A program made the translations under genes and the position numbers. Below, one piece after another: positions 5,219 to 51,100 of a stretch of 63,880 nucleotides of DNA. This DNA is from a virus (taxonomy: Duplodnaviria; Caudoviricetes): the IMG/VR virus record IMGVR_UViG_3300022833_000010, positions 1 to 63,880 of that record; one strand, written 5' to 3'. The notes beneath the pieces are model-generated. The model made no database searches and was not told the DNA's origin. It saw only the letters and a program-made list of their open reading frames with translations. Every line of letters starts with the position of its first letter. The stretch's first letter is position 1.

Positions 5219-5364
5219 TAGTTAGCCTCCCAGAATTCTAGTTTTTCCATAAGTTCATAGAGAGTCATTTCGTTAATATGCTCTTCAAAGGTTTTCTCGT
5301 CAGCCCCACAAGAGCTGCCATAAATATCCCACCATGCCTTATAGCTTTTCCATGCTTGTATCAT
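5218..5364 (-). CDS. Small hypothetical protein (48 aa)
   Basis: Not in track; MIQAWKSYKAWWDIYGSSCGADEKTFEEHINEMTLYELMEKLEFWEAN fills the gap and is stop/start coupled on both sides. Confidence 0.55.
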   Translation of the reverse strand: MIQAWKSYKAWWDIYGSSCGADEKTFEEHINEMTLYELMEKLEFWEAN

Positions 5365-5591
5365 TGTTTAGTTTCCTTCTGAGCTTCAATGTAGGCACGA
5401 TAAGCATTATAAGTAACTACATAAGCAGCAGCAAAAGCATTATTAGCATAATAAGCATTATCAGCAGCGGCATAAGCATTATAAGCAACTACATAAGCAT
5501 CAGCAAAAGCATTATCAGCAGCATCATAAGCATCATCAGCGGCATTATTAGCAGCATCAAGTGCAGCCTTTAGTTTCTCAAGTTCAGTCAT
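5361..5591 (-). CDS. Ala/Tyr/Asp-rich protein, MTELEKLK family (start revised to 5591)
   Basis: MTELEKLKAALDAA...; internal ~48-bp direct repeat at 5401 and 5473. Confidence 0.65.
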   Translation of the reverse strand: MTELEKLKAALDAANNAADDAYDAADNAFADAYVVAYNAYAAADNAYYANNAFAAAYVVTYNAYRAYIEAQKETKQ

Positions 5592-5784
5592 TAGCACAAC
5601 CCTCCTTAGCTTCAATGTAGGTACGATACGCAACAGCATAAGCATCATAGGCATCATTAAAAGCATCATGGGCATTACGAGTAGCAACATGAGCATTACG
5701 AGTAGCAACATAAGAATTATGGGCAGCTTCAACTTCAGCACCAGCAACCTTATAGGCGTCTTTAAGTTTCTCTAAGTTAGTCAT
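5584..5784 (-). CDS. Ala-rich protein, MTNLEKLK family
   Basis: Tandem VATRNAH repeat; SD GAGGA. Confidence 0.65.
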   Translation of the reverse strand: MTNLEKLKDAYKVAGAEVEAAHNSYVATRNAHVATRNAHDAFNDAYDAYAVAYRTYIEAKEGCAND

Positions 5785-7596: not shown

Positions 7597-7779
7597 TTAG
7601 AAGATATCTTTTCGTAAACTCTCGGCCTCTTCAAGACCCTCTACAAGAAACATTCCAATGTATAGAATACTAAATCCAAGGATTACGACAGGGACAAACA
7701 AGAGAGTTCTTAGAATACCATGCCAAGGTTTCCAAGACTTTTCATAATAGTTTGCTGGCCAGTTATACCATTTTTTCAT
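7597..7779 (-). CDS. Small membrane protein
   Basis: One TM segment. Confidence 0.55.
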   Translation of the reverse strand: MKKWYNWPANYYEKSWKPWHGILRTLLFVPVVILGFSILYIGMFLVEGLEEAESLRKDIF

Positions 7780-7791
7780 TATAGTATTCCT

Positions 7792-12724: not shown

Positions 12725-12911
12725 TCTTATTACTATCTATAACGTTATTTAGGTGGGAAGCCATGAAAAGTTCTGAGAAATTATGACACGCTAAATAAGC
12801 AAATAAGCAACCCATGATATTAAAATCAAAAATATTAAAAGCTGCAAGAAATCCTGTAAACAAGATTATTACTTTTACTAAATATAGTGCAATAGCTACG
12901 TCTTTCAACAT
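12717..12911 (-). CDS. Small membrane protein
   Basis: Hydrophobic; coupled to neighbours. Confidence 0.5.
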   Translation of the reverse strand: MLKDVAIALYLVKVIILFTGFLAAFNIFDFNIMGCLFAYLACHNFSELFMASHLNNVIDSNKNG

Positions 12912-13408
12912 TAGTATTTTCCTTTTATAGTTTTTAAATAAGACCTTGTACGAACGCTAATTGATTCTTTAGGTACAAACCTGATAGCTGCAATCTGTCT
13001 ATTATAAAAGCGAGGTGTTTTATTATCTTCTAACTTTTCTGTCATAGATTCTGAAACCATCTGACAGTAAGCCTCAGCGTAATATAAACCTCCTTTTGTA
13101 TTATAAACATCGACAATTTCAAATACAAAATCAGATTTCTTTTGGTTTTTGAGGTCTAGTTTTAAGTGTTCAGAGGATCCAACATAAACTCGCCAAGGCA
13201 TTTCTTTACCGTAAGTAGAAGACTTTTTGAGACCTCCTCGCCAGAATTGTTTTTTACCCCAGTAGATCTGTCTTGTAATCTTGTTTTGAATGCAATACAA
13301 GAAACCAAAGTGGTCGCTAGGGTTGAAGCTGACTTTTGACTTCCAATGTCCGATTTCGTTCTTCAATAGTTTTGTCGTATACTTCTTTGTTGAGGGTGAA
13401 GTGGTCAT
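12911..13408 (-). CDS. GIY-YIG-like endonuclease (T4 endonuclease II-like); start uncertain
   Basis: FGFLYCI..KIT..IYWGKKQF, WRVYVGSS, FYN.QI. Confidence 0.75.
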   Translation of the reverse strand: MTTSPSTKKYTTKLLKNEIGHWKSKVSFNPSDHFGFLYCIQNKITRQIYWGKKQFWRGGLKKSSTYGKEMPWRVYVGSSEHLKLDLKNQKKSDFVFEIVDVYNTKGGLYYAEAYCQMVSESMTEKLEDNKTPRFYNRQIAAIRFVPKESISVRTRSYLKTIKGKY

Positions 13409-22298: not shown

Positions 22299-22862
22299 TT
22301 ACTTTCCTTTGATAGCTGTTACGTGAAACTTAGAAACTTCTTCAACAGTGTTAAAGTGTTTACCTTTGTCTTTTTCAAAGATGAACTGACACCAAGTATC
22401 CCACCAATACTCTGAACCTTCTTTTTGTACAAGATCAACATATTCTGCTGTACGTTTAGAATTAGAAAAGTAGGAGCTAGAAATGCCTAAACGATTGAGA
22501 TTGTGTACGTCTAAACATGCACAATTGTAGCCTAACATTTGTAATAGAAAACCTGATTTGGCAAGACCAATACCTTTAGTTTTTGCTATAAGAGTAATCG
22601 CATCGCTTACTTCCATTTTGTTTGAAACTAGGCTGTTATACCACTGGTACTTGTTAGCTTGGACTGCATCATAAGCATCGTTTTTATGACCCCAGATGTG
22701 CTTAGAAGCAGCCCCTTCTTCTTTAATACTCTTTGTAATTGTGTCTAAGTGATAGAATTTAGTTCTGATAGAACCGATAACACAGTAGGCCACTTCAGCA
22801 AGAGCAGATGGGCCTTCTTTTTGTACATATTGTTGAATTTGTTTTACATCATTCTTATACAT
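22299..22862 (-). CDS. HhH-GPD DNA glycosylase-like protein
   Basis: KGIGLAKSGFLLQMLG..CACLDVH resembles Ogg2-type GIG.K.A..FL...G....ID.H. Confidence 0.65.
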   Translation of the reverse strand: MYKNDVKQIQQYVQKEGPSALAEVAYCVIGSIRTKFYHLDTITKSIKEEGAASKHIWGHKNDAYDAVQANKYQWYNSLVSNKMEVSDAITLIAKTKGIGLAKSGFLLQMLGYNCACLDVHNLNRLGISSSYFSNSKRTAEYVDLVQKEGSEYWWDTWCQFIFEKDKGKHFNTVEEVSKFHVTAIKGK

Positions 22863-23250
22863 TTAGGTTTTCTCCGCCTTTTACTTCGTTCCAGTTGTAA
22901 GGTGAAAAGTTATCACCTCTGTTATCTTCAGGTCTCAAACTCTCTTCTAACATGTAAGCATGCTTTTTTAAAAGGCCTTTGCCGATGATAGAGATTGTAA
23001 CGCTATTTGAATACCTAGACATTTGATGGTGTACTGTTCGCCAACCCTTCTCACCTCCTTCATAAAATGCTAACTCAGCAGCATAACGCATACCTAGACC
23101 TACCTCTGTTAGACCTGTTACGCCGATGTAACCTTGATGTATTCCTTTGTGTTGAGGTACGCTGATCCAGTAAAGCAAAAATGTCTTATCTAAAGGTTTG
23201 TTGTTATACGCTCTTTTCATATTATCAGGCAGCAATTCATAAGAATTCAT
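22855..23250 (-). CDS. GIY-YIG-like nuclease
   Basis: LYWI......GYIGVT ... AY.LE..LRP ... WN...GG. Confidence 0.6.
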   Translation of the reverse strand: MNSYELLPDNMKRAYNNKPLDKTFLLYWISVPQHKGIHQGYIGVTGLTEVGLGMRYAAELAFYEGGEKGWRTVHHQMSRYSNSVTISIIGKGLLKKHAYMLEESLRPEDNRGDNFSPYNWNEVKGGENLNV

Positions 23251-23268
23251 AATACTCTCCAATTTGGT

Positions 23269-23297
23269 AAAAAGGCCACCCTAGTTAAAGGATGACC
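23269..23297 (-). terminator. Intrinsic terminator after ssb
   Basis: GGTCATCCT-TTAACT-AGGGTGGCC-TTTTT; near-identical to 30498-30527. Confidence 0.8.
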
Positions 23298-23325
23298 GTA
23301 ATTTTAGGATTGCAGTCCAAGACGT

Positions 23326-23877
23326 TTAAAAGTTTATGTCGTCGTCAAGATCGTCGTTTTTACCCGATACCATGTCGTCGTCGGCATCGTGATTATCTTC
23401 AATCTTGTTAACCTTATATTCAGTAGGTGCGAAACCACCGTCCATAGGTTTTGGAGTGTATTCATTATGAAGTGTAACTTGGATACCCATTAACATGGAT
23501 GCCCGACCTTCTTTATTATTTACTTTATAATCATATTGAAAAATTGACAGATTGCCACGAGAACCATTACCAATTGTTTTTGGGTCAATAGGTGAAAGAT
23601 CACCAGCAACCACATTAACAGGTTTAGTATTAGTACCATCTGCCTTCTTAGATCGCTTTTTCAAGTTAACACGATAAAACACACCGTCATCGTTATCGTC
23701 TGTAGTTACACGAAGATCTTTTGCTTTCCAATCTTTAGCAACTGCCTTGTCTTTAGTTCGGATTTGAATCTCCCAAGTAGGGCGATCTTTATCAAAGCGA
23801 GAGTTAGGGCGTTCAGGGTCCAGTTTAGCAAAGTAAATTTCTACGTCCATAAGTACGATTGTTGCGTTATCAGTCAT
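23326..23877 (-). CDS. Single-stranded DNA-binding protein (T7 gp2.5-like)
   Basis: IGNGSRGN, GIQV, acidic tail ending in F; start revised to MTDNAT. Confidence 0.8.
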   Translation of the reverse strand: MTDNATIVLMDVEIYFAKLDPERPNSRFDKDRPTWEIQIRTKDKAVAKDWKAKDLRVTTDDNDDGVFYRVNLKKRSKKADGTNTKPVNVVAGDLSPIDPKTIGNGSRGNLSIFQYDYKVNNKEGRASMLMGIQVTLHNEYTPKPMDGGFAPTEYKVNKIEDNHDADDDMVSGKNDDLDDDINF

Positions 23878-23936
23878 GTTATTTCTTCCTAATAGGTTTT
23901 GTGTTTGGATTATGTGATCGGAATTGAACACTTATA

Positions 23937-23956
23937 ATCATTATTTGCGGGTATTT
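23937..23956 (-). promoter_or_regulatory. Phage RNAP promoter, class M/L, copy 3
   Basis: Perfect 20-mer upstream of ssb; first copy downstream of the stand-alone RNAP gene. Confidence 0.8.
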
Positions 23957-24214
23957 TTATTCCTTGTAATCAAGGTACTTTTGGTATTGCTCGTCAGTAA
24001 TTTCTACTAAATAGTCTCCGTAATCTTCCTCGTAAAGCTCTGAATAAAATTCAGTTTCATCTTTTGAAACCATAGTACACACTCCTTCGAAACCTTTTTC
24101 TCCTAGAAGTACTCCTATCACTTTGGCTTCGTTAACTTCATCTTCATAGTGTATTTTTACATAAACATTTTTTTCAAGCAAAAGCGAAATCTGATTCAAT
24201 GACTTTAGAAACAT
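23957..24214 (-). CDS. Hypothetical acidic protein
   Basis: ORF track; overlaps the RNAP 3' end. Confidence 0.5.
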   Translation of the reverse strand: MFLKSLNQISLLLEKNVYVKIHYEDEVNEAKVIGVLLGEKGFEGVCTMVSKDETEFYSELYEEDYGDYLVEITDEQYQKYLDYKE

Positions 24215-26510
24215 CTAAGTTTCCTTTCTCTGGGATTAAATGTAGAGCGTCCATCTGACTAAAGATATGCTCTAAGGGTTCTTGTTCGTAAAGTTCAACG
24301 AACTTGTATCTAACATTCATAAACAAGTGGTTCATGTTACCAGCATGGCAACCGAAAGAGTCGTGTACAACTGTAACTTGATAATCAGAATCGTGTACAA
24401 CCATAGTTACGTGAACAGCATCAACACTGTGTACAACATTTGGAGCAGTTGATTGCTTTTGTTTAACTTTGTTTAGTTCTTCTGTTTTCCTTAAACTTAC
24501 ACTAATACGGTACATAGTTTCACCGCGATACAGCTCTACCTGTTTTGTCTTAGTCTCTACATAGAGTTGTACCATAGGGAAGCCTGTGATAACCTGATCA
24601 TAAGATACATGCTTCCCTTTTTGATTTTCAGATACACCGAGCTTCTCAAACATTTCTAACATGTCTGATGGTCCTTTTAGTTCTTTCTTACAAGTGCTGT
24701 AGATTAAGTGGCCTAAGAAAACCGACCAAGAGTAGTCCTTATCACGCAAGTAATCAGAAAGACCACGAGTGTCGTCTTCTACCATATCTACCATACCGTG
24801 TTGAGTACCGCCATAACCGAGTGTCATAACGGGTCTTTTTACACCTTTACGCCAGATTTTACGGTCTTTTACGTTATGCCAAAAAACAGCACCCATTTGT
24901 TTCTTTAAGTCGTAAGTTTGGTTTTTGTATTCTCTTAAGCGAGCTACTGCGTTACGGTAAAGTTCAGAATTACTATTATTACTAAGTTTAGAAATTTCTA
25001 ACTTTAAACTTACTAACGTTTTGAAAACCTTATCAAACTGGTCTGATACTTTCTTTGGTGTCTCTTTTGCTTTTTCAGCAACTACTTCAATTACCTTATC
25101 TGCAATAAACATGTAGACATCCCCCGGAAGTTCTTGAGGTACTAAGTTTACAAGCGGAGCTACATTTTCATCCTTAGACATGGCAGCTAGGTGCTGAACG
25201 CCGTTATTGCTACCGTCGATGTAGATCGGCAGGTTAGAGGGGAAGTCCTCTATGTCTAAGCCTTTGTCGTTTACCCAGACGTTTATTAGAGAAAGTTCGT
25301 AACAGCAAGCCAAGAAGCACAAAGGTTTGTCCGCGTCCATCCAACCATCATTCTCAAGAGGATCTTCTACATAACTTAAATACGTGGACCAGTTTTCTAT
25401 TACAAACTCTGAGCGATCAGCTAGAGTAACTTTGTCGTTACCTAGCATGTTAGCGGTGTGAACTGTGAGCCAGAACATACCATCTTCACCTAGCGTTACA
25501 CTTTCATCTAACAAGAGTAAACCTTTTGCGTTGTCAGAAGATTGTTCGTGCAAGAAGGCAGTGTTAGGATAAATTCTACCGCGAAAGTCGCAGTTGTACA
25601 AGTGGTAGAAAGGATCAAACTGATTTCTTTCTGCTAACCTTTCAATAGCAGCAAGTTCAATTAACAAAGAAGCCTTCTTTTCTGGATCAACTTCTTTCAT
25701 AGCCTTAAAAGGTGTTTTACCTTGGTGTGTCTTTGCCTTCTTAAACACATCGAAAATAAAAGGATTGATCCTCCAACCTACATCACCTAGCTTATTTAAG
25801 GCTTTTACGACGTAATCCATTTGACCTTGTTTTACTTTCTTGATTGCGTCTTGATGAGGTTTTTTCTTGATAATCGGAAAACCAGTGTTGTGAAAGAACT
25901 TTCCACTTTCCCAGTGATCTGGTTTACTACGCATTGGAAATAACTCAACACTATCAATGTCGATTGTTTCCATAATAGAATGAAGTGCTTCAATGTTTTT
26001 TACATTTACATGGTAAGAAGTGTGCTTTTTCTTTCGACCTCCTTTGTTACTACCTACTTTTAAACGTAATGACAGTATCTCTAAATCGAGATAAGCTTGA
26101 AACAAAAACCATGCAAGATGCACTTCTTTGATTTCTACTTTGTTTGATTCTTCTTCTAGTTTTAACTTGCAGTTAGGCAGACCTAGTTTATTGTGAGTTC
26201 CAATAAAGAACCTTAGTTCTTTTAGTTCTGTGTTATCATCATTAACACTTTCTCGCTCAAGCACCTTTACTTTTTTACGTAAGTTCCTAAACATAGCACC
26301 CCCAACGCTTGATAAGGTGTTAGCTAACTCACTTTGCCTTTCTAAGTTTGTAAGAACATGTCCGTAGGTTAGAGTGATGAGTTCTTCTGGATCAAACTGA
26401 TAAAGGATCCAAGCTTTGTTTCTCGTATCTACCTCACTTGATTTGTTTGTTTTCATTAATTGGAGTTGTTGTTGTGTGAGGTTTTCACAGAGCAGCCCCA
26501 TAGTGTTCAT
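24174..26510 (-). CDS. Single-subunit T7-like DNA-directed RNA polymerase (stand-alone)
   Basis: DFRGRIY, IDGSNNGVQHL (motif A), RKGVKRPVMTLGYG (B), PNVVHSVDA, VHDSFG (C), C-terminal FAFA. Confidence 0.97.
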   Translation of the reverse strand: MNTMGLLCENLTQQQLQLMKTNKSSEVDTRNKAWILYQFDPEELITLTYGHVLTNLERQSELANTLSSVGGAMFRNLRKKVKVLERESVNDDNTELKELRFFIGTHNKLGLPNCKLKLEEESNKVEIKEVHLAWFLFQAYLDLEILSLRLKVGSNKGGRKKKHTSYHVNVKNIEALHSIMETIDIDSVELFPMRSKPDHWESGKFFHNTGFPIIKKKPHQDAIKKVKQGQMDYVVKALNKLGDVGWRINPFIFDVFKKAKTHQGKTPFKAMKEVDPEKKASLLIELAAIERLAERNQFDPFYHLYNCDFRGRIYPNTAFLHEQSSDNAKGLLLLDESVTLGEDGMFWLTVHTANMLGNDKVTLADRSEFVIENWSTYLSYVEDPLENDGWMDADKPLCFLACCYELSLINVWVNDKGLDIEDFPSNLPIYIDGSNNGVQHLAAMSKDENVAPLVNLVPQELPGDVYMFIADKVIEVVAEKAKETPKKVSDQFDKVFKTLVSLKLEISKLSNNSNSELYRNAVARLREYKNQTYDLKKQMGAVFWHNVKDRKIWRKGVKRPVMTLGYGGTQHGMVDMVEDDTRGLSDYLRDKDYSWSVFLGHLIYSTCKKELKGPSDMLEMFEKLGVSENQKGKHVSYDQVITGFPMVQLYVETKTKQVELYRGETMYRISVSLRKTEELNKVKQKQSTAPNVVHSVDAVHVTMVVHDSDYQVTVVHDSFGCHAGNMNHLFMNVRYKFVELYEQEPLEHIFSQMDALHLIPEKGNLDVSKVIESDFAFA

Positions 26511-26625
26511 AAGTTATTCCTTTTAGTTAGTGGACGAAGTGTATTCTTAAACACTCCACTTTATTTAAGGACTTTATAACTCTTAGTCTTCCTGAATTAA
26601 TCCTGTTTTAAGACAGATTAATACA

Positions 26626-26634
26626 ATTATAACA
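26626..26634 (-). promoter_or_regulatory. Possible host sigma70 extended -10 (TGTTATAAT) for the RNAP gene
   Basis: TGnTATAAT ~115 nt upstream of the RNAP start, just after a terminator; AT-rich context lowers certainty. Confidence 0.35.
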
Positions 26635-26663
26635 AAAAGAGTCATTTAAAATAGTTCTCCGAG

Positions 26664-26721
26664 AAAAAAAAATTGTTTATAACTCCCCCGCCACCACTCC
26701 GAAGAGCAGCAGCGAGGGGTT
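26664..26721 (-). terminator. Terminator ending the early region
   Basis: CCCTCGCTGCTGCTC-TTCG-GAGTGGTGGCGGGGG (15 bp, several G-U), then a U9 tract about 10 nt downstream. Confidence 0.75.
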
Positions 26722-26732
26722 TTGTTTTATGA

Positions 26733-26975
26733 TTACCCGTCTAGGCGAGGTGTGTTATCCGAGAAGGTTTTAACCCAGTTACGAACCGATAGTTTACAGC
26801 AGTTAAACTCTACTGCTACTTCTTGGATAGGCTTACCAGCAAGAATCATACCGACTGCTTGAAGACGATCTGAGTGAATACGTTTTCCATAAGGGCGGTT
26901 TTGAACAAGAGAGTAGTTAGCACCTTTGGAAAGTTCTTTTGCTGTTGGGAAGTTCCGGCGTACAAAATTAGTCAT
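26733..26975 (-). CDS. Small helix-turn-helix DNA-binding protein
   Basis: RLQAV..IL.G.PIQEVA.EFNC...SVRNWVK; start revised to MTNF. Confidence 0.7.
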   Translation of the reverse strand: MTNFVRRNFPTAKELSKGANYSLVQNRPYGKRIHSDRLQAVGMILAGKPIQEVAVEFNCCKLSVRNWVKTFSDNTPRLDG

Positions 26976-27165
26976 AAAAGCTTTCCTTATTGTTTGTTTT
27001 GGCGTTATCGCCGATAGCTTTAAGTTCTGCAAAAATATCTTCAATTGACTTTTCAACACTATTGTCAACGTAAGTATGAGACCACTGTTTATCAATGTCT
27101 TTTACAAGGTTAGAAAACTTGATTTCTTCTAGGTATTCAGAAGTACCTCTTTTAGCAATTGTCAT
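26968..27165 (-). CDS. Hypothetical protein
   Basis: ORF track. Confidence 0.55.
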   Translation of the reverse strand: MTIAKRGTSEYLEEIKFSNLVKDIDKQWSHTYVDNSVEKSIEDIFAELKAIGDNAKTNNKESFYD

Positions 27166-27194
27166 AGCACACCTTTCTAAGTTTAGTTCAGTCT

Positions 27195-27413
27195 TTACAG
27201 TCGCAACTTCATTTTACTTAACTGTTCTTTGAATTCTTCGTCTACTTTTTCTTCAGTTTTTCCGATTACAAGAAGAATCAACATTACAATTAGTGGACTA
27301 ACTAACAAAGCTGCGATAGTCCAACCTGCTGCGTTACGCCCACGGGATTCGGACATGATATATACAACCCAACACGTGAATGCCAAGACTGCAATAATAA
27401 TAAGAGTTTCCAT
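27195..27413 (-). CDS. Small membrane protein (..RGR...GW.. family)
   Basis: Two TM helices. Confidence 0.65.
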   Translation of the reverse strand: METLIIIAVLAFTCWVVYIMSESRGRNAAGWTIAALLVSPLIVMLILLVIGKTEEKVDEEFKEQLSKMKLRL

Positions 27414-27433
27414 AGTTTTATTCCTTTGTTTAT

Positions 27434-27447
27434 TTCATTATAGAGGG
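27434..27447 (-). promoter_or_regulatory. Class E (early) promoter-like motif, copy 1
   Basis: CCCTCTATAATGAA, intergenic, ~20 nt before ATG. Confidence 0.65.
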
Positions 27448-27467
27448 TGATAATTTCTCAGTTATCT

Positions 27468-28034
27468 TTAAGACTTTTTTAAGGTTTCCCAATCTGGTAC
27501 GCCGTCTTCTGTCTTTACTGTTGCGAGTTGCATTGGAAGGTCGTCAGAGTAAATACGTAAATCAACAACTTCATAAACAGGGACTTTCTTACGATATGCA
27601 ACGCCAAACCCATTGAAACAAGCAATATCATTTGTATAACTACAAACAGCATCTTTATCTGTGAAGAGAATCCAAGGGTTATCTTCTGTTTCAGCGCGCG
27701 ATATCAGTGTGTAAGTACCACAACAGCGTTCAATCTTAAAATCTCCGACTGAGTCATCTTTAATGGTGTAGTAATTAGTAAACCCCTTAACAACATCTCC
27801 AGTCTTTAGGTTCATAGTTTTTGGGAGACCCCTGAAACCAGTCGGAACGTCTTCTTTGACTAGCTCTAGATCAAGGTTGCAAGACCAGTTTCCAAAGTCT
27901 TTACCTCCTGATACTTGTACTGCTGACTGGTTTCCATCAAGATATGTAATAATACCGACGTCCCCTACCTTGTTACAGCTAAGAGCTGCATTACCAATGA
28001 TCTTTACTTTGTCGCCTACTTTGAAATTAGTCAT
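27468..28034 (-). CDS. Hypothetical protein with KVGD modules
   Basis: FKVGDKVKI, NKVGDVG, LKTGDVV. Confidence 0.65.
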   Translation of the reverse strand: MTNFKVGDKVKIIGNAALSCNKVGDVGIITYLDGNQSAVQVSGGKDFGNWSCNLDLELVKEDVPTGFRGLPKTMNLKTGDVVKGFTNYYTIKDDSVGDFKIERCCGTYTLISRAETEDNPWILFTDKDAVCSYTNDIACFNGFGVAYRKKVPVYEVVDLRIYSDDLPMQLATVKTEDGVPDWETLKKS

Positions 28035-28049
28035 TTAGTTATCCTTGGA

Positions 28050-28439
28050 TTATTTGTAAAAGATGTGAGTTCCGACAATAGCTACAATATCATAGCTAGA
28101 AGTCCAGTATGGGCTAACGTAGTCTGCGTGATACATAATAGCGCCGGAAGAAGGCATGTCAATGTTTCCTGATACGTATCCTTCAACAACAGCTTGAGAG
28201 TGTTCCCAAGCTAACTGATCGAGATAAGACATACGTGTTGGGTCGTCATGTTTACCGTCATTTGTCCAAGAGAATTGAGAGTCTTGGAAAACAACAGCAC
28301 ACACTTTGTCTGGGTATTTGTTAGAGACTACTCGGTTCATTGTTACTTCTATGACTGCGAGTTGGCCCATTAAAGGTTCGTTTCTTGCTTCAAAGAACAC
28401 ATTTAAAGAAAGACATAGTGCTGCTGCTGCGGTAATCAT
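28050..28439 (-). CDS. SleB/CwlJ-like cell wall hydrolase (Hydrolase_2)
   Basis: CL..NVFFEARNE...GQ.AV..V..NRV, QFSW, YHADYV.PYW, HIFY. Confidence 0.9.
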   Translation of the reverse strand: MITAAAALCLSLNVFFEARNEPLMGQLAVIEVTMNRVVSNKYPDKVCAVVFQDSQFSWTNDGKHDDPTRMSYLDQLAWEHSQAVVEGYVSGNIDMPSSGAIMYHADYVSPYWTSSYDIVAIVGTHIFYK

Positions 28440-28455
28440 AAGTTATACTCCTGTT

Positions 28456-28815
28456 TTATGTTGGCATTTTTAAGTCGTTATTTTTAGCGTACCTTTCACA
28501 ACGTTCTATAAAAAGAGGTAGATCTGAGTCTAGTTCTAGCCCATCATGTAAGCATTGCAATGACACTAGAAACTCGAGATTACTCCCTAAGTAACTAGGT
28601 AAAACCTCTCTTCCATAGAGATTTGCGACATCAGAACCACCGTTTACTGTATGGTCATCCATTTCCTTTAAGTAGTCTTTATCTTCAATTAAGTGACCGA
28701 TACCACACTTACGACCATTAGGTCCACGATAGAGACAACTCTCTTCAAACCTAGAAGGGCCACCTTGAGCAATTACACCAGATACCGATTTCGAGAACAT
28801 TTCTTGACGTGTCAT
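28456..28815 (-). CDS. Hypothetical protein (C.YRG..G.KC.IG.LI family)
   Basis: Motifs CLYRGPNGRKCGIGHLI and LQ.LHD. Confidence 0.65.
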   Translation of the reverse strand: MTRQEMFSKSVSGVIAQGGPSRFEESCLYRGPNGRKCGIGHLIEDKDYLKEMDDHTVNGGSDVANLYGREVLPSYLGSNLEFLVSLQCLHDGLELDSDLPLFIERCERYAKNNDLKMPT

Positions 28816-28817
28816 AG

Positions 28818-29012
28818 TTATACTCCTGTGTAAATGTTAGGGTTAATCTGAAAACTATCAGATACTTTGATAATCTCAATTTTGCTTAAGAAGTCCTCAC
28901 TCCATTTCATTTGATGTTGATGCACGAAAAATGCTGCATCTGTAATCTTTTCAAAAGGTCCGAAATCACAAACAGTGTTTTCTACGGAAGTTTCTTTTAC
29001 GTACCATTTCAT
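28818..29012 (-). CDS. Hypothetical protein
   Basis: ORF track. Confidence 0.5.
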   Translation of the reverse strand: MKWYVKETSVENTVCDFGPFEKITDAAFFVHQHQMKWSEDFLSKIEIIKVSDSFQINPNIYTGV

Positions 29013-29163
29013 AATGATTTCCTTGTTTTTTCTGATCCATCTTTTGAGATCAACGTGTTAAAACCCATCATACAACAGGCCGCGTAGTATTCTTCAGTTT
29101 CCTTTAAAACATCACAACAGTGAGGTTGTGGGAATACTACTAGTACTTGCATAGTGTTATTTT

Positions 29164-29457
29164 TCATGCTTTAGCCTTACTTTCTTTTGAAGGTTTACTT
29201 TTAGAAATAGCGAACAATCCAAAGTAGTCTATAATGAAAATTCCGAATACCGTTAAAGTTCCGAGAGAGTGGTCGTTTAGCATCATACCTATAGACACAG
29301 GTATTCCGATTAAAGGAAGAGATTTAGCAAAAATAGTTATCTTAAAAAAACTTTCAAAAAAGCTTGCCAAAATCATTCTCAAGGTAAATCCAATAAAAAT
29401 GTCAAGGAAGGGTACTCCAATGTAATCTAACAAAGGAGTTGAAGATAGGGTTTCCAT
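29164..29457 (-). CDS. Membrane protein
   Basis: Hydrophobic segments. Confidence 0.55.
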   Translation of the reverse strand: METLSSTPLLDYIGVPFLDIFIGFTLRMILASFFESFFKITIFAKSLPLIGIPVSIGMMLNDHSLGTLTVFGIFIIDYFGLFAISKSKPSKESKAKA

Positions 29458-29467
29458 AGTTTTATCC

Positions 29468-29761
29468 TTAATTGCTATAAATAGAATATTCTTCTATAAA
29501 GCAAGAAGCTGTGTTTTCGAAGTATTCACGTGGTAAGATCCACTGTTTAAAACTTCCATGTTTATTGTCACCTACACATACAGAGGAGTGCAAGTTGAAG
29601 TGGGGAGGGAGTGTGTCTAACACCACCTCAATAACAACCCCCTTGTTGTACATTGCGGCTTTCTCGTAGTTGTCTGTCCAATGTGTTAAGTTGCGAGTTT
29701 GAATATCTTTGCTCAACTCTTGAGCTTCACGTTGAGTAGTGCCTCTAAAGAATTTGTGCAT
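29468..29761 (-). CDS. Hypothetical protein, possible ADP-ribosyltransferase fold
   Basis: FFRGT ... THWTD....A..Y ... QWIL; start revised to MHKF. Confidence 0.45.
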   Translation of the reverse strand: MHKFFRGTTQREAQELSKDIQTRNLTHWTDNYEKAAMYNKGVVIEVVLDTLPPHFNLHSSVCVGDNKHGSFKQWILPREYFENTASCFIEEYSIYSN

Positions 29762-29804
29762 AGTGTTTCCTATTTGTTTTGTGTACAAAGCCCGTACAAT
29801 TAAG

Positions 29805-29832
29805 TGAACAGTTTTAAACCATGTTCAGGGTC
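29805..29832 (-). ncRNA. 28-nt H-type pseudoknot motif, copy A
   Basis: GACC-C-UGAACA-U-GGUU-UAAAAC-UGUUCA. Confidence 0.6.
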
Positions 29833-29841
29833 GTTAAAATT

Positions 29842-30018
29842 TTACCGATACTTATCTATTATCCAGATATTGAGTAACAATACTGGAGCGCCGAGTAGTA
29901 GTACTGAAATACACATACAGATACGAATAAACATAGGCTCGTCTTGGGAGTAATTCCACATTAAAAATACTAGTGAGAAGATTCCGGCAAGCACGTACAA
30001 TAGCATGAAAGTAGACAT
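29842..30018 (-). CDS. Small membrane protein (58 aa)
   Basis: Not in track; MSTFMLLYVLAGIFSLVFLMWNYSQDEPMFIRICMCISVLLLGAPVLLLNIWIIDKYR; SD GGAG. Confidence 0.6.
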   Translation of the reverse strand: MSTFMLLYVLAGIFSLVFLMWNYSQDEPMFIRICMCISVLLLGAPVLLLNIWIIDKYR

Positions 30019-30020
30019 AG

Positions 30021-30083
30021 GTTGTTCTCCATTTGGGTTATTTGATGTTTCTTCATTATAGAGGGGCGTTTTTCCCCACTTTT
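30021..30083 (-). promoter_or_regulatory. Class E promoter plus leader/RBS cassette, copy 2
   Basis: AAAAGTGGGG-N8-CCCTCTATAATGAAGAAACATCA...GGAGAACAAC; the 45-bp block is 44/45 identical to 30398-30442. Confidence 0.75.
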
Positions 30084-30093
30084 ATCAACATTT

Positions 30094-30396
30094 TTACTTG
30101 TTAATTTTGAGTAACATTTTCAACGCCATGTTTTCTGCACGAAGCTCTGATTGTTTTATAGTCCAGTTTTTGTGAGTTTCCCTGTTACGATCGTTAATTT
30201 CAACAACTGCCAGATACTCTTTATACCAAAAATTCCCGTTAAAAACACGATTAGAAATTTTCTCAACTCTGGAAAGCTTTTCAAATTGGTTTGAATTGCT
30301 TGAGTCAATAATACCGTCCAGTAAAATTTTTCCTTTGGCGGCGAGTCTACGGTTTTCCCATTTCACTTTTTTAGCTTTGAGTTTTGAAAAGATCAT
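30094..30396 (-). CDS. Hypothetical basic protein, first gene of the early region
   Basis: Directly after class E cassette copy 3. Confidence 0.6.
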   Translation of the reverse strand: MIFSKLKAKKVKWENRRLAAKGKILLDGIIDSSNSNQFEKLSRVEKISNRVFNGNFWYKEYLAVVEINDRNRETHKNWTIKQSELRAENMALKMLLKINK

Positions 30397-30397
30397 T

Positions 30398-30460
30398 GTT
30401 GTTCTCCATTTGGGTTATATGATGTTTCTTCATTATAGAGGGCCAAAAACCCCCACTTTT
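30398..30460 (-). promoter_or_regulatory. Class E promoter plus leader/RBS cassette, copy 3
   Basis: Same as copy 2, offset 377 bp. Confidence 0.75.
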
Positions 30461-30465
30461 TTAGC

Positions 30466-30483
30466 ACAAAGCCCGTACAATTA
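30466..30483. repeat. Dispersed motif ACAAAGCCCGTACAATTA
   Basis: Identical 18-mer at 29785-29802; related copies at 6813, 19851, 50637 (+) and 39806, 57669 (-). Confidence 0.7.
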
Positions 30484-30497
30484 CCCAACAATTTGAT

Positions 30498-30527
30498 AAA
30501 AAAGGCCACCCCAATTAAGGGATGACC
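30498..30527 (-). terminator. Intrinsic terminator ending the late operon
   Basis: GGTCATCCC-TTAATT-GGGGTGGCC-TTTTTT. Confidence 0.85.
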
Positions 30528-30533
30528 ATTAGT

Positions 30534-30884
30534 TTATTTTTTAGCAGGTCTTGGTTTAGGTTTAACTTTCGCTACAGTAGGTTTTTTCTTAGCCCACGAT
30601 TTCCTATTCAAGTTATTTTGAGACCGTGTGGCAGGCTTCAAATTAGAAGCTTTGTTGTCAGAACGATCTCTGTTTTTGTGATCTAGCTCAGTAGTAACTT
30701 TTTTACCAGTTGTCATTTCTTTAACAACACGGTGTACGTAATGAGCTTTTCCGTTTACACGAACGGTCTTATACCCGTCTCCATGACTCGTGCCAGCCTC
30801 GGAACCCGCAGCCTTTCGACCGCGAGCCTCCTTCCAGTATAGTTTTCCATCTTTCTGCTTAAAAAGCTTTTTCCACTTTTGCAT
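30534..30884 (-). CDS. HNH endonuclease
   Basis: VHRVV ... LDHKNRDRSDN...NL..AT.SQN..N. Confidence 0.85.
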   Translation of the reverse strand: MQKWKKLFKQKDGKLYWKEARGRKAAGSEAGTSHGDGYKTVRVNGKAHYVHRVVKEMTTGKKVTTELDHKNRDRSDNKASNLKPATRSQNNLNRKSWAKKKPTVAKVKPKPRPAKK

Positions 30885-33800
30885 TAGCGACCACCTCTCT
30901 CACGGTTAGTTGCGTTTACACCACCAGTAATTTGAGGAATCATCTTGACAATCTCTTTACGAGTTTGACGACTGACGTCACCAGTAACATTAATGTTGTA
31001 AACTTGCTGTTGTGATTCTTTTTGGCCGTTGTTCATGTTAGCAACTGCATTTTTAGAAAGAACCATTTCTCCGGGCATTAGCATAGCTGGTACGGAGTCT
31101 TTACCTGCTTGTGAGAAAGACGTACTTGGTACAGTACCACCTTGAGCCATACCGACTCCACCGAAGAAGCCAAGTATAGAGCTAAATATACCACCTCCTG
31201 CACCGGAGCCTCCTCCGCCACCTAGATTAGAAAAGAAGCCTGATATGCTTTCACCTAATCCAGAGAAAAGACCTGAGAGGGTCGACCCGAGAGATTCAGT
31301 TATCCCACCTTCTCCGCCGTTACCAGCAAGACCTTTTGTAATACCACCTTCAACAGTTTCACCAACTTTTGAACCGAAGCCAAGAACACCTTCAAATATA
31401 CCACCCAGAGATTTACCTAACCCACCTTCGGGGCTAAACAAAGCAGTAGTAAAACTTTCAGAAAAAGCGTTGATAATATTTGAGCTGAAACTATCTGCTA
31501 AGTCAAGTAAGAAACCTTTAGCATCACCTGTCATTAAGAATGTTGAGAATGCGTTTTGAAAATCTCCTTGGAAATTCTCTGCGTAACTTTCTGCGATCTC
31601 TTCAGGTGTTTTTGCAGTATCCTTTTTCTTACTCTTGCTTTTATCATCACTTATACTACTTGAAGTGTTAGAACTTTCTGTAGAAATGTCACTAATGCTA
31701 CTAGTAGACGATAGTCTCGCCCTAGCGAGTAAAGCATCAATTGTGGCAACATCGCCGTACTCGTTCCTACTTACGGCTCTTGCACGGGCGGATTCTAGAT
31801 CAGCAATATCTCCTGATAGTCCACCTCCAGCCAACATTTTAGGCATAATACCTGCATTGACTTTGGCCATAAAGTCTGGGCCGAATTTGCTGACAGCGGA
31901 CGCCTTCATTACAAACTCACCATTAGAGAGCATAGCAGGGATTTCGTCCGAAGTACCTGTTCCCTTGCCATTCACAGCACCACCAGAGTTGAAGCCACCA
32001 ACATCTAAAGGTAGTAGGCTATTACTAGGGGTAAAAGTAGGAGCAGCGACTACACTAGATTTTTGTACTTGAAGTATACCTGAAGACAAGTTATCTAATC
32101 TGTTAGTAATTTTCCGAATGGCTTCTTCAAACTCGCCAATTGCAGAGCTGTTTAACATACGACCAAGTAGACCCAGATCTGAAAGTCTATCCAACTCGTC
32201 TTGCCAAGATTCTAAAGCTGCTTCAGATTGAGCAATTGTCATAGAATTTAAGGAAGAAGTTTCAAGGTTAGCAATAAGTGCTGAGTTCAGAGGGTCGTTG
32301 TTTATATCTCTGTTGATAGCGTTGGTATTACGATCACTAACTGTACCTGTGGAACCTGTCAGTAAATTTACCGGTAAGTTGATTACTTTCTCAACAGTTC
32401 CCGCAATTAAATCTCTTAGTTTTTCTGATAACTCACTTTCAGAAGTTAGTAGAAATACACTGAGACCTATTGCCGCAGCAGCTAATACTGCAGGATTTGA
32501 AATTAGAGCGAAGATACCGCTCCTAAGCTGTTTCAAAGCTTCCGGACCTTTTAATCCTTTAAAGATCCTTTTAATTAATCCAGAGCCTAGCCTAAGTAGA
32601 CTAGCGGATAACCCCGGTGTAATTAAAAAAGCACCTGCAATTAATACGAGGGCTGTTGCCAGTTTATCGGAGAATTCACTATTAAAATCTTTTCCGAAGA
32701 AACCATCAACAAAACCACTTCCGATAGAAGATGCTATGTTTTTAATACCTTCTATTACGTTAGCAACAATATCACCTTCACCAGAAAGAGCATCTTTTAA
32801 TGCCTTACCAAAACCTCTTGCAACTTTATTGATAGCAGCTAAGAATTCCTTATCATTGCCAAGCACGTTTGCTGCACTTAAGAACGCACCAGCTAATGCC
32901 CCTTTAAGTACAAGCTCTCTTATTGAACGCTTTAGTGCAATACCTAGAGCAACCGATATCGCAGCTGCTAACTGATCGCTATTGGCATTAAAATATTCCT
33001 CTGTATTTGCTATAATATTGTCGAAGGATTCTGTGACACTTTCAGCTATTGCTATAGCACCAATAACAAGAGGTGTCTTCTTTAATAAGTCTAAGAAAGT
33101 ATTATAGTAATCGGAAGAAAAGTCAATTGCTCTCTGGAAACTATTTCTTATTTCTTCAGAAAATGGGAGGTCAATTCTGCCACCAGATTTCAAATAAGTA
33201 TAGTCTCCAAAATAATCCCAAGCTTCAGTCATCGAAGATAAAGTGGAAGACCAAGCCTCTGCTAGACCGTCAGTGATTGTTGTTTTCAAACCACCTCTAG
33301 ATTCTATTTCGACAAGCATGTCTTTATATTCTGATACAACTTTTTTGTTTAAGTTGTTAAAGACTTCAATTATCTTAGCACCCCACGCTTTTAATTGGTC
33401 TAAGGGTTTATCTAAGAATGTCTTTAAGCTAGACCCGACTGATAAGGATTGTCCTGCTTCCATGTGAGAAGGGTCAAAAATACCAGTCCACAAAGAACGA
33501 CCAACAACACGATCCCAGATTTCGTAAAAGATTGCAACAACGTTATCTTTAAACCTTGTCAACCCTGAAATAGCACTAGAGAAGCCAGTGAATATCTTGT
33601 CTGACAGATCAACTTGAGTTATAGCAGTATCCATAGGGATATAGCCAGACTCGCGTCTCCACATGTTTTTAACTACGTCTTTTATTTCTTCTACAGTAGC
33701 GATTACGTTATTCTTAGAATTAGCCATAGCAGACTGTATACCATCTAAGAACTTAGAAGCATCTATCTCGTCTGTAAACAATCCGGATATATCATCCATA

Positions 33801-44379: not shown

Positions 44380-44454
44380 TGGCTCTCTGTCTTGGAATCG
44401 AACCAAGCAACAGCTGATTAACAGTCAGACCGCACACCTTGTGCGCTACAGAGA
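44380..44454 (-). tRNA. tRNA-Asn (GTT)
   Basis: Acceptor TCTCTGT/ACAGAGA, loop CT-GTT-AA, GGTTCGATTCC T-arm, encoded CCA. Confidence 0.85.
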
Positions 44455-44475
44455 ATATTTTATTAATGTAATAAT

Positions 44476-44552
44476 TGGACCGCGCAGTAGGACTCGAACC
44501 TACAACCTAGACTGTAGAAGAATCTTGCTCTATCCATTTGAGCTATGCGCGG
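44476..44552 (-). tRNA. tRNA-Arg (TCT)
   Basis: Full cloverleaf CCGCGCA/TGCGCGG, D-loop GGATA, loop CT-TCT-AC, CCA. Confidence 0.9.
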
Positions 44553-44556
44553 TTAG

Positions 44557-44632
44557 TGGTTCTGCAACGAAGGTTCGAACTCCGGACATCTTCATTACAA
44601 GTGAAGTACTCTACCAACTGAGTTATTGCAGC
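44557..44632 (-). tRNA. tRNA-Thr (TGT)
   Basis: Cloverleaf, loop CT-TGT-AA, CCA; G1-A72 mismatch. Confidence 0.88.
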
Positions 44633-46388: not shown

Positions 46389-46470
46389 TTAAGTATATTT
46401 AAAGACAAACATAATCACTATTATACCTTTAGATATACTTAAACTATATCTTTAGATATACTTAAACTAT
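46389..46470. repeat. AT-rich iteron-like repeats
   Basis: CTTTAGATATACTTAAACTAT at 46427-46447 and 46450-46470; inverted 16-bp copy (1 mismatch) at 46389-46404. Confidence 0.7.
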
Positions 46471-48129: not shown

Positions 48130-51100
48130 TTATTGTCCAATTGCTTGCCAGTCTATATCTCTAGAGACCCTGCTTCCAGAATTATAAATCGAGTAAACAA
48201 ACCCAACTTTGTTTCTAGAAATTATGATGATTTCATCACCTTGAGAACCTCCAATAACCATCATGCCGATACTAGGGGAGTTTGTTCCGCCAGAACCTCC
48301 ATAAAACGGAGTACCAAATGTAACTGTAACATCTTCAGATACGCTGCTGTTTGAAGAACCTACCTTAACAATATCCTTCTTATCAACAATTATTGATAGC
48401 TCGGAAAGAGTAATCTTGATGTTTGAGTTTCTAGCAACACCTACAAAATTAAATCTTAAGGCTCTGCAAGTAAAACTACCTACTGTCAATAACTCGTAAC
48501 TAGTCCAAACTGGACTTCCAGAAGGGTCATCTTTTGTAGTAGATACTTGAACACGTAAGTCTGCATCTTGCAACGTACCACCAAAGTTAGGGGTATTTTG
48601 TACAGAATCATAACCTGAAACAAAATCAGTTCTAGATATAACAGAAGCCACTACAGAAGGGTATATCCTAACAGTAACTATCTCGCCCAAGTCAACATAG
48701 TTGTTGAATTCGTAGGTCATCTCTGTTTCATTTTCATCTAAAGTCAACAAAGTACCGTCAGTAGAACAGTTAGACTTTGCACCTAAAAATCCCGGACCGC
48801 TTTCGTCAGAAGTTTCAATTTGATTAAAACTTGAATCTTGGAAAGTGCTAGTAAATACTGCAGCGTTAGTAGAATAAATACCAGAAGAATCTTTAAACTT
48901 GATAAAGAAAGTCCCTTTTAATGTAGGTACTGTTTTGTTGTTAGTATTACCTGATAAAGAATCTACAAGCACAGAAGAAGTATCCCAAGAAGCAGAAGAG
49001 TCTGTAGCAATGTGAAAACGAATTTCACAACTACCACCATAAACAACATCTAAGTCTGGAGACAACTTCCAAGCTAAGTTAATTTGCCCCTCATTAATGT
49101 TACCATTAAAATTTTCAGGAGTAGAAGGTGGGGAAGATAACCCGACCATTAACTTTTGGAAGTTGAAAGAGGAACCTGCAAAACCATAAGTACTATAGGG
49201 TGTTACTCTTAAGTCATACAACGCATGTCTTACATCTGGTATAGTCACCTTTTGGCTAGCTGTCGTACCTAACGTTTCATACTCACTATCTGATGCCAGC
49301 TTGTACTCTACTAGATAGTAAGCAGAATTAATACCGCTGTTGTCTGGAACCCAATTAAGCAAAGCTCTAGATTTTACACCTGATGCGTTGTTAGTAATAT
49401 AAATTTCTTCGAATACTCCTAAACTCAGAAGAGCTTCTGGTGACTTTACTAGGGTTTGAGCTAGTAAGAACACGGAAGAAACCTCTTCACCTAGCGGCGT
49501 CTTTGCCCTAACTTTAAAATCGTAAACAGCGTGACTACTCAAAGAATTCAACTTTTGAAAACTAACAGACTTGTTCGTGGTAGTAGCCAGTGCAGTATAA
49601 TCACTATCAGTATCTTTTTTGTAAAATACTTCATAAGTATAATTACCATTACCCGCGTCGTCTTCATAGTCCCAAGTTAATTTACCTAAATCTAATACTT
49701 CTAGATCTTCTATACTAATTGAAAAGTTAGTAATCGGGTTTACAACTTCAGTAGAAACATTTGAAGCAGGGTAAGGCACTTCATCGTTAATATTCCAAGC
49801 GAGAGTTCTAAAGTCAAAGTAATAAGCATCTACTGATACTGACAAGTCCGAATTGATCTGAATACTTTCTATTCTATAAACAGTAGGGTCAACGTCCAGA
49901 GCTTCCGAAGAAAGAATAAAGAAATCTCCCGGCTCCATAAGGATAGCCGCCCTAGAGAGAGTAACAGATATTTGATGTAAAGATCTACTTAGACGAACTA
50001 AACCTTCAGCCTTTGCCATTGCATGGTAAGGGTCGGTAACACCAATAGGTGTAATAGAAGACTTCAAGTCTTGATAGTTATCTTCTTCAATATAAATATT
50101 GTAAGCATCACTACCTACACGGGGCCAACTTACCGAGTCAGATTTAAAGTCATTAAACGAGTTTGGAAATTGAACTGTTACCTGATTAAACTTATCTTCG
50201 GCGTTAGGCCAGCTCATTGAAAAATCAGATTTAATAATATGGTCATCCGAAAATACGTGAGAAGCATCTACTAAGCCGTTTTCTACAGAAGGTTGTTCAG
50301 AAGGATAAGCAAGATTAAGCTTGTAAGACCCACCAGACCAGATTAGAGTAGCTTGCCCCATTGTTTCAAGTATTTGAGTAACGTTGTCTCTAACTGGGTT
50401 TGCAGTATCTACAATATGGTTTATCTCATAAAGTCTAATATCTGTCACACCAGAACCACCTGATACTTTTCCGTCTTTAGTAGCACCCTTCATAACAATT
50501 GTATCACAAGCTACCTTAGCTTTGTAGAAAGAAGGCAGGTCAATGCTTTGTACAGTTAGACCTCTACCGTAAGAAGAACTCATAAGGTAATCTAAAAGAA
50601 CTCTGGCAGGGTTGTTACTGTAAGTCTTTGTAGCAGAAAGCCCGTACAAACCGTTGTTTTCTTCAATATCGTATACTTTTTGACCTTCAACGAAGAATTC
50701 TAAATTAGGAATACCTGCACCATATTGAGGATCGTCTCTGTTTACTTTAAACACACAAGAAGCCATAAACGTTTCTGTAAAGATGTTTGTAGACTTAGTG
50801 AAGTTAGCAGTAGACGCTTTGTCTTCACCACCGTTCTGATAAGTGTTTATCCGAAGACTGCTATTGTAATCACTATCTGACCAGCGTTTACCGTCGACGT
50901 TAATATCAATTACGCGAGAAACACCTGCAAAGGCAATAGCATGTTGTGTAAACAAGAATTCATTCTTACTACCGCTTTGACTAGAACCCAAACCTTTGGC
51001 AAACACTTGCGTGCTAACATCAATGTTACTTTGCCTGCGAACTGCAAACCTGTAACTACTATTGCTAATTCTATGTTCATCGCCTACAAAGTAAGTAGAA

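Follow-up and report, generated by a model that had tools for sequence, protein, structure and literature searches.

A conserved bipartite element in the early region of a tape-measure phage, a candidate T7-type promoter for a head protein-RNA polymerase fusion

Introduction

The IMG/VR record IMGVR_UViG_3300022833_000010 is a complete phage record (Duplodnaviria; Caudoviricetes) of 63,880 bp with a G+C content of 39%, the full length of which is referred to here as the window. Essentially all genes and long open reading frames (ORFs) are on the minus strand, and they include two T7-family RNA polymerases (RNAPs), a free enzyme of 778 amino acids (aa) and an enzyme of 1479 aa fused to a MuF head protein (hereafter MuF-RNAP). 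Between the terminator of the late operon and the gene of the 778-aa RNAP the genome carries three copies of a 38-base bipartite element, class A. Our main conclusion is that the class A sites are probably early T7-type promoters, read as duplex DNA by a phage single-subunit RNAP, most likely the MuF-RNAP, which would be carried in the capsid and ejected. An earlier note, made from the sequence alone, had already proposed the MuF-RNAP as the reader, and had suggested that the element forms a small DNA hairpin as the early promoters of phage N4 do. Here we describe class A and its conservation, and weigh the possible readers and the possible form of the promoter.

Class A sites in the genome

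The sequence CCCTCTATAATGAA is present in three exact copies, at 27434-27447, 30052-30065 and 30429-30442, all on the minus, coding strand. Allowing up to two mismatches gave no extra copies, 0.44 +/- 0.67 being expected, and a count of three was reached in one out of 100 shuffles. The 15-nucleotide (nt) core TCTATAATGAAGAAA has 13 matches at up to three mismatches, with 5.44 +/- 2.17 expected; its sole other match with at most two mismatches (7771-7785) overlaps the ATG of ORF 7597-7779. Exact search and shuffles therefore agree with the earlier observation that the motif is confined to the early region, and the class A motif is real and non-random. All copies are found within 27.4-30.5 kb, and each is followed, 20-35 nt further on, by a ribosome-binding site with its ATG. 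The two upstream copies are part of a 63-nt repeat, 87% identical (30021-30083 and 30398-30460), which spans AAAAGTGGGG to the start codon, and this bears out the near-identical cassette of promoter, leader and ribosome-binding site that had been reported.

The complete element consists of an A-tract, (G/C)TGRGR, an A/T-rich spacer and (CCC)TCTATAAYGAAGAAA (Table 1). The upstream element of copy 3 is a degenerate variant, ATAACTGAGA (CTGAGA type), which recurs in the related records L007 and L008. We propose a numbering in which the invariant G after TATAAT is +1, a start position that is predicted from the sequence. The A-tract and (G/C)TG(G/A)G(G/A) would then form an upstream element at -30 to -19, followed by an A/T-rich tract at about -18 to -13 (A5 or T5), a clade-specific triplet at -11 to -9 (CCC in this phage, within a variable stretch from -12 to -9) and an invariant part from -8 to +7 that reads TCTATAAY up to -1 and GAAGAAA from +1.

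Conservation among related phages

Three relatives were retrieved by means of the 778-aa RNAP protein, L001 (71% identical in the database search) and L003 and L004 (both 56%). They contain three, four and two class A sites, respectively, upstream of the RNAP gene and with the same upstream part. A scan of IMG/VR with the 18-mer CCCTCTATAAYGAAGAAA identified 33 stretches with 66 sites, 49 of which are distinct, and a second pattern with -12 to -9 left free identified 71 stretches with 71 distinct sites; core positions in both sets are fixed by the search patterns, hence core invariance is there partly by construction. The upstream element falls outside the 18-mer pattern. Among the 49 distinct sites it is composed of A6 (A in 48/49), G or C, T (47/49), GGG (44-47/49) and G (39/49), and is followed by the A/T-rich spacer and CCCTC at a distance, from upstream element to CCCTC, that is fixed at 14 nt. 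Three of the 49 sites, in L006, L030 and L033, were by eye found to be without the upstream part and are probably chance matches. The triplet at -11 to -9 is CCC in 36, GCA in 18 and GTA in 10 of the 71 distinct sites. In five further records found with the motif the sites are clustered within approximately 3.3 kb on one strand.

Class A is also found in more distant phages. Roseophage DSS3_VP1 (Naomviridae), both polymerases of which are approximately 43% identical to those of the phage studied here, has AAAAAGTGAGAAAACTAAGGCATCTATAATGAAGAAA directly after the terminator of the tape-measure gene, and contains two full class A sites, at 35812 and 36259, upstream of the RNAP at 42436. In a third clade, represented by record G007, class A takes the form GAAAAAGTGAGAAAAATGACGTATCTATAATGAAGAAA. 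The core TCTATAATGAAGAAA is kept among clades with RNAPs that are only 43-48% identical. Independently, records were collected via the MuF-RNAP protein, and four of these five have class A 1.7-2.5 kb upstream of a 778-aa-type RNAP gene: G007 with two sites, G009 with one, and G006 and G008 with one each that has an extra A between TATAAT and GAAGAA. A near-invariant block of approximately 20 bp, intergenic and on the coding strand, is hence common to all three copies described above and to the related sites, including those anchored by a gene, and at least 15 invariant bases outside the hexamer are shared between phage clades.

Pelagibacter phage Kolga, which has a 633-aa MuF protein without RNAP domain as well as a T7-like RNAP, shows no class A motif; its early region is AT-rich with sigma70-like matches at chance level (19 versus 17.8 +/- 4.9), which makes it a non-discriminating control. 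In EBPR siphovirus 1, a partial record in which the MuF-RNAP is split by an HNH gene, no recognisable class A was found in 50 kb, but with the region after the tail genes cut off the record is uninformative. A blastn search of the phage collection with 27000-31000 as query gave no match.

Host RNA polymerase as a possible reader

T7-type phages classically have their earliest genes transcribed by the host RNAP, and class A includes an exact sigma70 -10 hexamer, TATAAT, in all three sites of this genome and in 38 of the 49 related sites. Host sigma70 RNAP might thus read class A as promoters with only a -10 element, in which case the upstream element would serve a helper, either an activator or a contact of the alpha subunit. 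None of the three sites was however called in a sigma70 consensus scan of 22500-31500, which gave 20 matches versus 21.5 +/- 4.7 by chance. Scan and sequence reading show neither a -35 element at 16-18 bp nor a TG extension, in agreement with the earlier remark that TATAAT occurs here without a TTGACA-like -35. The remaining 11 of the 49 related sites have TATAAC and lose the last T (-7) of the hexamer, which sigma70 needs. Moreover, a host factor leaves unexplained why at least 15 flanking bases are invariant across clades that include a roseophage, and PHROG profiles identified no sigma, MotA-like or activator-like protein among ten early ORFs. Since a -35 is lacking, since TATAAC variants occur and since the element is kept across clades with polymerases that are approximately 45% identical, sigma70 is a poor fit; a host promoter is not the economical reading of class A and we consider it unlikely. 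The consensus sequences of sigma32, sigmaE and sigma54 were compared with the motif by eye only, and rejected. The host of the only cultured relative is an alphaproteobacterium.

The two polymerases

A T7-fold RNAP that could be cognate to class A is encoded twice in the genome. The 778-aa RNAP is a strong homologue of T7 RNAP (Table 1). The MuF-RNAP has at least 398 homologues, nearly all with both the MuF and the RNAP domain, and its catalytic motifs are invariant in 29 homologues. An AlphaFold model of aa 660-1479 (pLDDT 85.5, pTM 0.83) has T7 RNAP as its best structural match (Z 26.6, root mean square deviation 3.1 Å over 513 residues); the T7-promoter complex 1cez is matched with Z 22.5 over 627 residues and mitochondrial RNAPs with Z of approximately 25, compared to 17.3-17.4 for the N4 mini-vRNAP. 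Although a search of PDB with the single MuF-RNAP sequence found nothing, the family profile matches T7 RNAP (E 7.5e-5, T7 residues 723-838); N4 RNAPII is reached only at E 0.17, and the N4 virion RNAP is not among the matches with E <= 1. As judged from fold and motifs, both polymerases are T7-type.

MuF domains mark head proteins, and delivery into the host has been proposed for the enzymes fused to them (Iyer et al., PMC5512222). The gene of the MuF-RNAP is located between the portal and the major head genes, and this location together with the MuF domain suggests that the enzyme may be packaged, ejected and active. Between MuF and the modelled polymerase domain it has approximately 330 conserved residues (residues ~330-660, encoded by ~43290-42300) that have no Pfam match. 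This part of the protein is a candidate for recognising the element at -30 to -19.

Proposed pairing of polymerases and promoter classes

A second repeated element, class B (AAATACCCGCAAATAATGAT; AAATACCCGCAAATAATG), has five copies on the minus strand (Table 1), and these front the single-stranded DNA-binding protein (SSB), replication and structural modules. None of the five is found within the class A interval. The copy after the RNAP gene is conserved in L001-L004, and in DSS3_VP1 and G007 class B is replaced by TAGGGTGCGTTAAAG-type elements; DSS3_VP1 has 13 such class B-like sites (TAGGGTGCGTTAAAGA...), none of them between 35.8 and 45.9 kb. Classes A and B have the same layout with a common initiation stretch ATAATGA, upstream of which they diverge. 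Contigs of relatives in three marine metatranscriptome runs (one study, small query shares) have 23315-23924 as their best-covered stretch and end at approximately 30519, which gives a weak hint for class B and for the terminator, DNA carry-over being possible.

Coupling between specificity loop and promoter is the rule for T7-like RNAPs, the promoters of which have 21 bp in four subregions, as stated in the accessible part of PMC11880802. Specificity loops were placed in each enzyme via alignment to T7 RNAP. The 778-aa RNAP of this phage has 23/32 loop residues in common with that of L001 (73% identity overall) and 19/32 with that of L003 (60% overall), and class B is the same in these phages. 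DSS3_VP1 and G007 have 15/32 in common (51% overall) and similar class B elements, whereas between this phage and either DSS3_VP1 or G007 only 5/32 are identical (45% overall) and class B is unrelated. The MuF-RNAP loops of this phage and DSS3_PM1 agree at 16/32 positions (48% for the domain) and class A is nearly unchanged. In addition, the class A triplet partitions with the type of MuF-RNAP loop, in 4/4 GTA records and 4/4 GCA records. As to gene order, no repeated signal other than class A separates the late terminator from the 778-aa RNAP gene, which is downstream of all three sites. From loops and gene order we therefore infer that class A is read by the MuF-RNAP and class B by the 778-aa RNAP. 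The target proposed in the earlier note is in that sense retained as our inference, and it fits the position of the sites, their conservation across clades, the TATAAC variants and the way in which the loops track the promoters.

The 778-aa RNAP might alternatively read class A too, or instead, as an early or middle class with positive feedback. In that case host RNAP or read-through would supply the first transcripts, and the MuF-RNAP would act on some other target or on none. The shared ATAATGA at the predicted start is in line with this, as is the strong homology of the 778-aa enzyme with T7 RNAP. On the branch where class B changes, however, the loop of this enzyme is nearly completely changed (5/32) and class A is not. 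There is no other promoter-like element from terminator 30527-30504 to the RNAP gene, sigma70-like matches being at chance level, and a conserved, intact virion polymerase would be left without a role. We consider this reading quite unlikely.

Folding of class A

In the early promoters of N4 a GC-rich heptamer, with its centre at -11, is enclosed by inverted repeats; the stems are at most 7 bp long, and their non-conserved bases vary only when pairing is kept (PMC4496689). By analogy with N4, the virion RNAP of which uses such hairpins, the MuF-RNAP might recognise an extruded hairpin that is closed by GGG(G)/CCC(C) and that needs a supercoiled or single-stranded template. The G-run and the C-run are indeed at a fixed distance in the clade of this phage and can pair, as the earlier note had it, but pairing is weak and is not conserved beyond three invariant G:C pairs. 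The fourth and fifth candidate pairs are unpaired in 28/45 and 25/45 distinct sequences, and a partner slid by +1 to +3 pairs better (78-82%) than the proposed register (72.9%). DNA folds of copies 1, 2 and 3 have -2.5, -3.6 and -1.2 kcal/mol, with z of -0.55, -2.22 and -0.71: copy 2 folds better than its shuffles but copies 1 and 3 do not, and the DSS3_VP1 site and one site of L008 have folds of 0 kcal/mol. RNAalifold predicts no pairs on the class A alignment. Variants with GAGA in place of GGGG coexist with an unchanged CCC inside the same genomes, hence without compensation, and complementary arms are absent altogether from the GCA and GTA clades.

The eight-base spacers AAAAACGC and GTTTTTGG, which had been described as roughly inverted to one another, have the sequences reported, and A5 facing T5 resembles a flipped loop. 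Across the family the spacer is nevertheless a plain A5, T5 or mixed A/T run. In T7 promoters the A/T-rich region from -17 to -13 is read via the minor groove, and the 'inverted' spacers are more easily understood as a tract rich in A/T that would be indifferent to strand than as a hairpin loop. Class A shows nothing comparable to the inverted repeats around a heptamer, the stable small hairpin or the compensated stem of the N4 promoters, and as the polymerase model is also closer to T7 RNAP than to the N4 mini-vRNAP, we regard the N4-like hairpin as very improbable.

Proposed programme

We propose that an ejected MuF-RNAP would start at the G of class A and transcribe the small early genes and the 778-aa RNAP gene, given that whatever reads class A would have to be present at time zero. 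The 778-aa RNAP would then use the class B promoters (AAATACCCGCAAATAAT followed by the G) before the SSB, replication and structural genes. More generally, and as a tentative extension that we hold at slightly less than even, a large and mostly uncultured group of marine and freshwater phages with tape-measure proteins, including roseophages DSS3_VP1 and DSS3_PM1 with uracil-containing DNA (dU-DNA), may share a programme that is independent of host RNAP and uses two T7-type polymerases. The capsid-ejected MuF fusion would start on duplex DNA at the 38-bp bipartite promoter, the upstream half of which would be read by a module that T7 RNAP lacks. The second polymerase would be a product of this transcription and would in turn read a T7-like class that evolves fast. 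The virion enzyme of the dU members would recognise a promoter that bears uracil. DSS3_VP1 is described as a dU-DNA phage in the accessible part of PMC8323127.

Several points weigh against the assignment of class A to an ejected MuF-RNAP. Packaging, ejection and activity of the enzyme are deduced from its domains, and the accessible part of the DSS3_VP1 paper (PMC8323127) reports no virion proteome. The metatranscriptome contigs mentioned above, from the sole RNA runs found, leave the class A stretch 29408-30475 uncovered. Record G019 has a GTG triplet although its loop is identical to that of a GCA record, and the correlation between loop and promoter derives from three deep clades, with contrasts that are few and phylogenetically non-independent. 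The invariance of the core is, as stated, partly a product of the search patterns, and the fifth record anchored by the MuF-RNAP, G020 (83% complete), has no core match at up to one mismatch, looser matches not having been sought. TATAAT being a perfect -10, host RNAP could use the class A sites as well. Finally, we know of no counterpart in T7-type promoters of a conserved element upstream of -17.

Otherwise class A resembles the promoters of T7, T3 and SP6. These also have a contiguous block of approximately 20 invariant bases in several intergenic copies on the coding strand, with an upstream A/T-rich tract, a few bases for specificity, a TATA-like sequence directly followed by an invariant G, and a start of the transcript that is rich in purines. 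The phages of class A likewise encode T7-fold polymerases, with a specificity loop that appears to vary with the promoter. Class A differs by its extra conserved element at approximately -30 to -19 and by its proposed reader, a 1479-aa fusion to a capsid protein rather than a free early-gene product. Its most conserved subregion is TCTATAAT, compared to CACTA in more than half of the T7-like promoters covered by the accessible part of PMC11880802.

To our knowledge the N4 enzyme is the only single-subunit virion RNAP of the T7 family, and it requires an unusual hairpin promoter. Under the proposed programme the phage studied here and N4 would have in common a small cluster of promoters at the head of the early region, a single-subunit RNAP that is delivered with the virion, and a second phage RNAP that is encoded by the first transcripts and then takes over. 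Class A, on the other hand, is without conserved hairpin, the polymerase has 1479 aa and a MuF domain versus approximately 3500 aa in N4, and its model scores Z 25-27 with T7 and mitochondrial RNAPs but Z 17 with the N4 mini-vRNAP. The genome studied here furthermore encodes a tape-measure protein and shares synteny with DSS3_VP1, which is siphovirus-like. In crAss-like phage phi14:2, in phiKZ and AR9 and in P23-45, as far as the accessible parts of the sources go, a polymerase that is co-delivered with the DNA also transcribes the earliest genes, and that of P23-45 is also fused to a structural (tape-measure) protein; these enzymes are however of two-barrel or multisubunit type, whereas the MuF-RNAP is a T7-type enzyme with Pol A fold fused to a MuF head protein.

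No published description of the MuF-RNAP fusion or of its promoters was found, although the supplements of PMC11880802 and PMC8323127 might list them. The main text of PMC8323127 does not contain 'RNA polymerase', 'RNAP' or 'MuF', PMC12669031 and PMC12697855 have no mention of terms related to the fusion, and the accessible part of Iyer et al. (PMC5512222), figures and supplements aside, describes MuF fusions to many enzymes and mentions none to an RNAP. What is added here is a fusion of a T7-fold polymerase with MuF in at least 398 database proteins, accompanied by a precisely definable and highly conserved candidate promoter that is distinct from the class of the second polymerase. If the proposed reading is true, it provides a way for a phage group with cultured dU-DNA members to begin infection independently of host RNAP, two orthogonal pairs of polymerase and promoter that come from a single genome, and a simple experimental system that consists of a 38-bp duplex and a polymerase domain of approximately 820 aa. 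It would also correct public annotations, which name the MuF-RNAP only 'head morphogenesis' or 'minor head protein'.

Genome organisation and other features

Read in the direction of transcription, the terminase is followed by tail and structural genes, the portal, three tRNA genes and the MuF-RNAP. Head and tail genes come next, with the tape-measure gene, a strong intrinsic terminator and a run of small ORFs, after which the 778-aa RNAP, an SSB-like gene, DNA polymerase, exonuclease and primase-helicase follow. Coordinates are listed in Table 1.

Table 1. Coordinates of promoter candidates, polymerase genes and neighbouring features in the window
Feature	Position	Strand	Remarks
Class A copy 1	30425..30462	-	A-tract 30462-30457; GTGGGGG 30456-30450; T-rich spacer 30449-30443; CCCTC 30442-30438; TATAAT 30437-30432; predicted +1 G 30431; GAAGAAA 30431-30425; precedes ORF 30094-30396, which it is predicted to drive
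Class A copy 2	30048..30083	-	AAAAGTGGGG 30083-30074; A-rich spacer; CCCTC 30065-30061; TATAAT 30060-30055; predicted +1 G 30054; proposed driver of ORF 29842-30018
Class A copy 3	27430..27465	-	Degenerate upstream element ATAACTGAGA 27465-27456; CCCTC 27447-27443; TATAAT 27442-27437; predicted +1 G 27436, then GAAATAA; proposed driver of ORF 27195-27413; upstream of 778-aa RNAP gene
MuF-RNAP fusion, 1479 aa	39837..44276	-	Pfam PF04233 Phage_Mu_F, residues 134-237; PF00940 RNA_pol, residues 1057-1429
Non-virion T7-like RNAP (nvRNAP), 778 aa	24174..26510	-	Pfam PF00940, E 3e-76; T7 RNAP in PDB, E 2e-51
Class B	46645-46626	-	CCCG starts at 46640; repeat family; +1 G predicted
Class B	46513-46494	-	CCCG starts at 46508; repeat family; +1 G predicted
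Class B	23937..23956	-	CCCG starts at 23951; repeat family; predicted +1 G 23939; directly after 778-aa RNAP gene
Class B	14143-14124	-	CCCG starts at 14138; repeat family; +1 G predicted
Class B	1074-1055	-	CCCG starts at 1069; repeat family; +1 G predicted
Portal gene	46331-44757	-	
tRNA genes Asn, Arg-TCT, Thr-TGT	44380-44632	-	Between portal and MuF-RNAP genes
Tape-measure gene	34768-30884	-	
Intrinsic terminator	30504..30527	-	End of late (structural) operon; 9 pairs and T-run; just upstream of class A copy 1; repeat copy at 23297-23274 (repeat family)
Class C, CACAAAGCCCGTACAAT	30465..30481	+	Abuts class A copy 1 on the opposite strand; repeat family
Class C	29784-29800	+	
Class C	50634-50650	+	
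Class C	57685-57669	-	
Class C	39824-39808	-	

A third repeated element, class C, has the consensus (C)ACAA(A/G)G(C/G)CCGTACAA(T/A) and occurs on both strands, each site being followed by a small hairpin. In relatives it is located between the terminator hairpin and the class A promoter, in either orientation. Class C is orientation-independent, which therefore suggests a protein-binding site rather than a promoter. In L003 (8808-8830) and L004 (9292-9314) the class A promoter overlaps a hairpin that resembles a terminator, CTCCCCAC-aaata-GTGGGGG, to which the GTGGGGG and TTTTT of class A contribute the 3' arm and the T-run. The 107-bp 'direct terminal repeat' for which G007 is flagged in IMG/VR was considered as a mark of the early end and rejected, as it is located inside the structural module, the first 23 kb of that record being large structural ORFs; an overlap left by the assembly of a circular or permuted genome may account for it.

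DSS3_VP1 has a tRNA-Asn in the matching place between the portal and MuF-RNAP genes. A search for its annotated deoxycytidylate deaminase found no homologue in the phage studied here (blastp at 1e-5; Pfam on 10 ORFs). A class B site directly precedes a gp2.5-like SSB gene (23326-23931, minus strand), and the terminator copy at 23297-23274 follows this gene. The intergenic region of 315 nt before the portal gene contains, beside two class B sites, two tandem copies of approximately 24 nt (gatatagtttaagtatatctaaag) at ~46400-46470 on the minus strand. Between the exonuclease and primase-helicase genes a SegE-like GIY-YIG endonuclease is encoded (12911-13408, minus strand), the DSS3_VP1 homologue of which is annotated otherwise. 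Lastly, 4205-5740 contains imperfect repeats (11 copies, spaced 9, 12 and 21 nt) within small minus-strand ORFs; the small proteins encoded there are paralogous and rich in repeats, and their N-terminal coding ends are similar.

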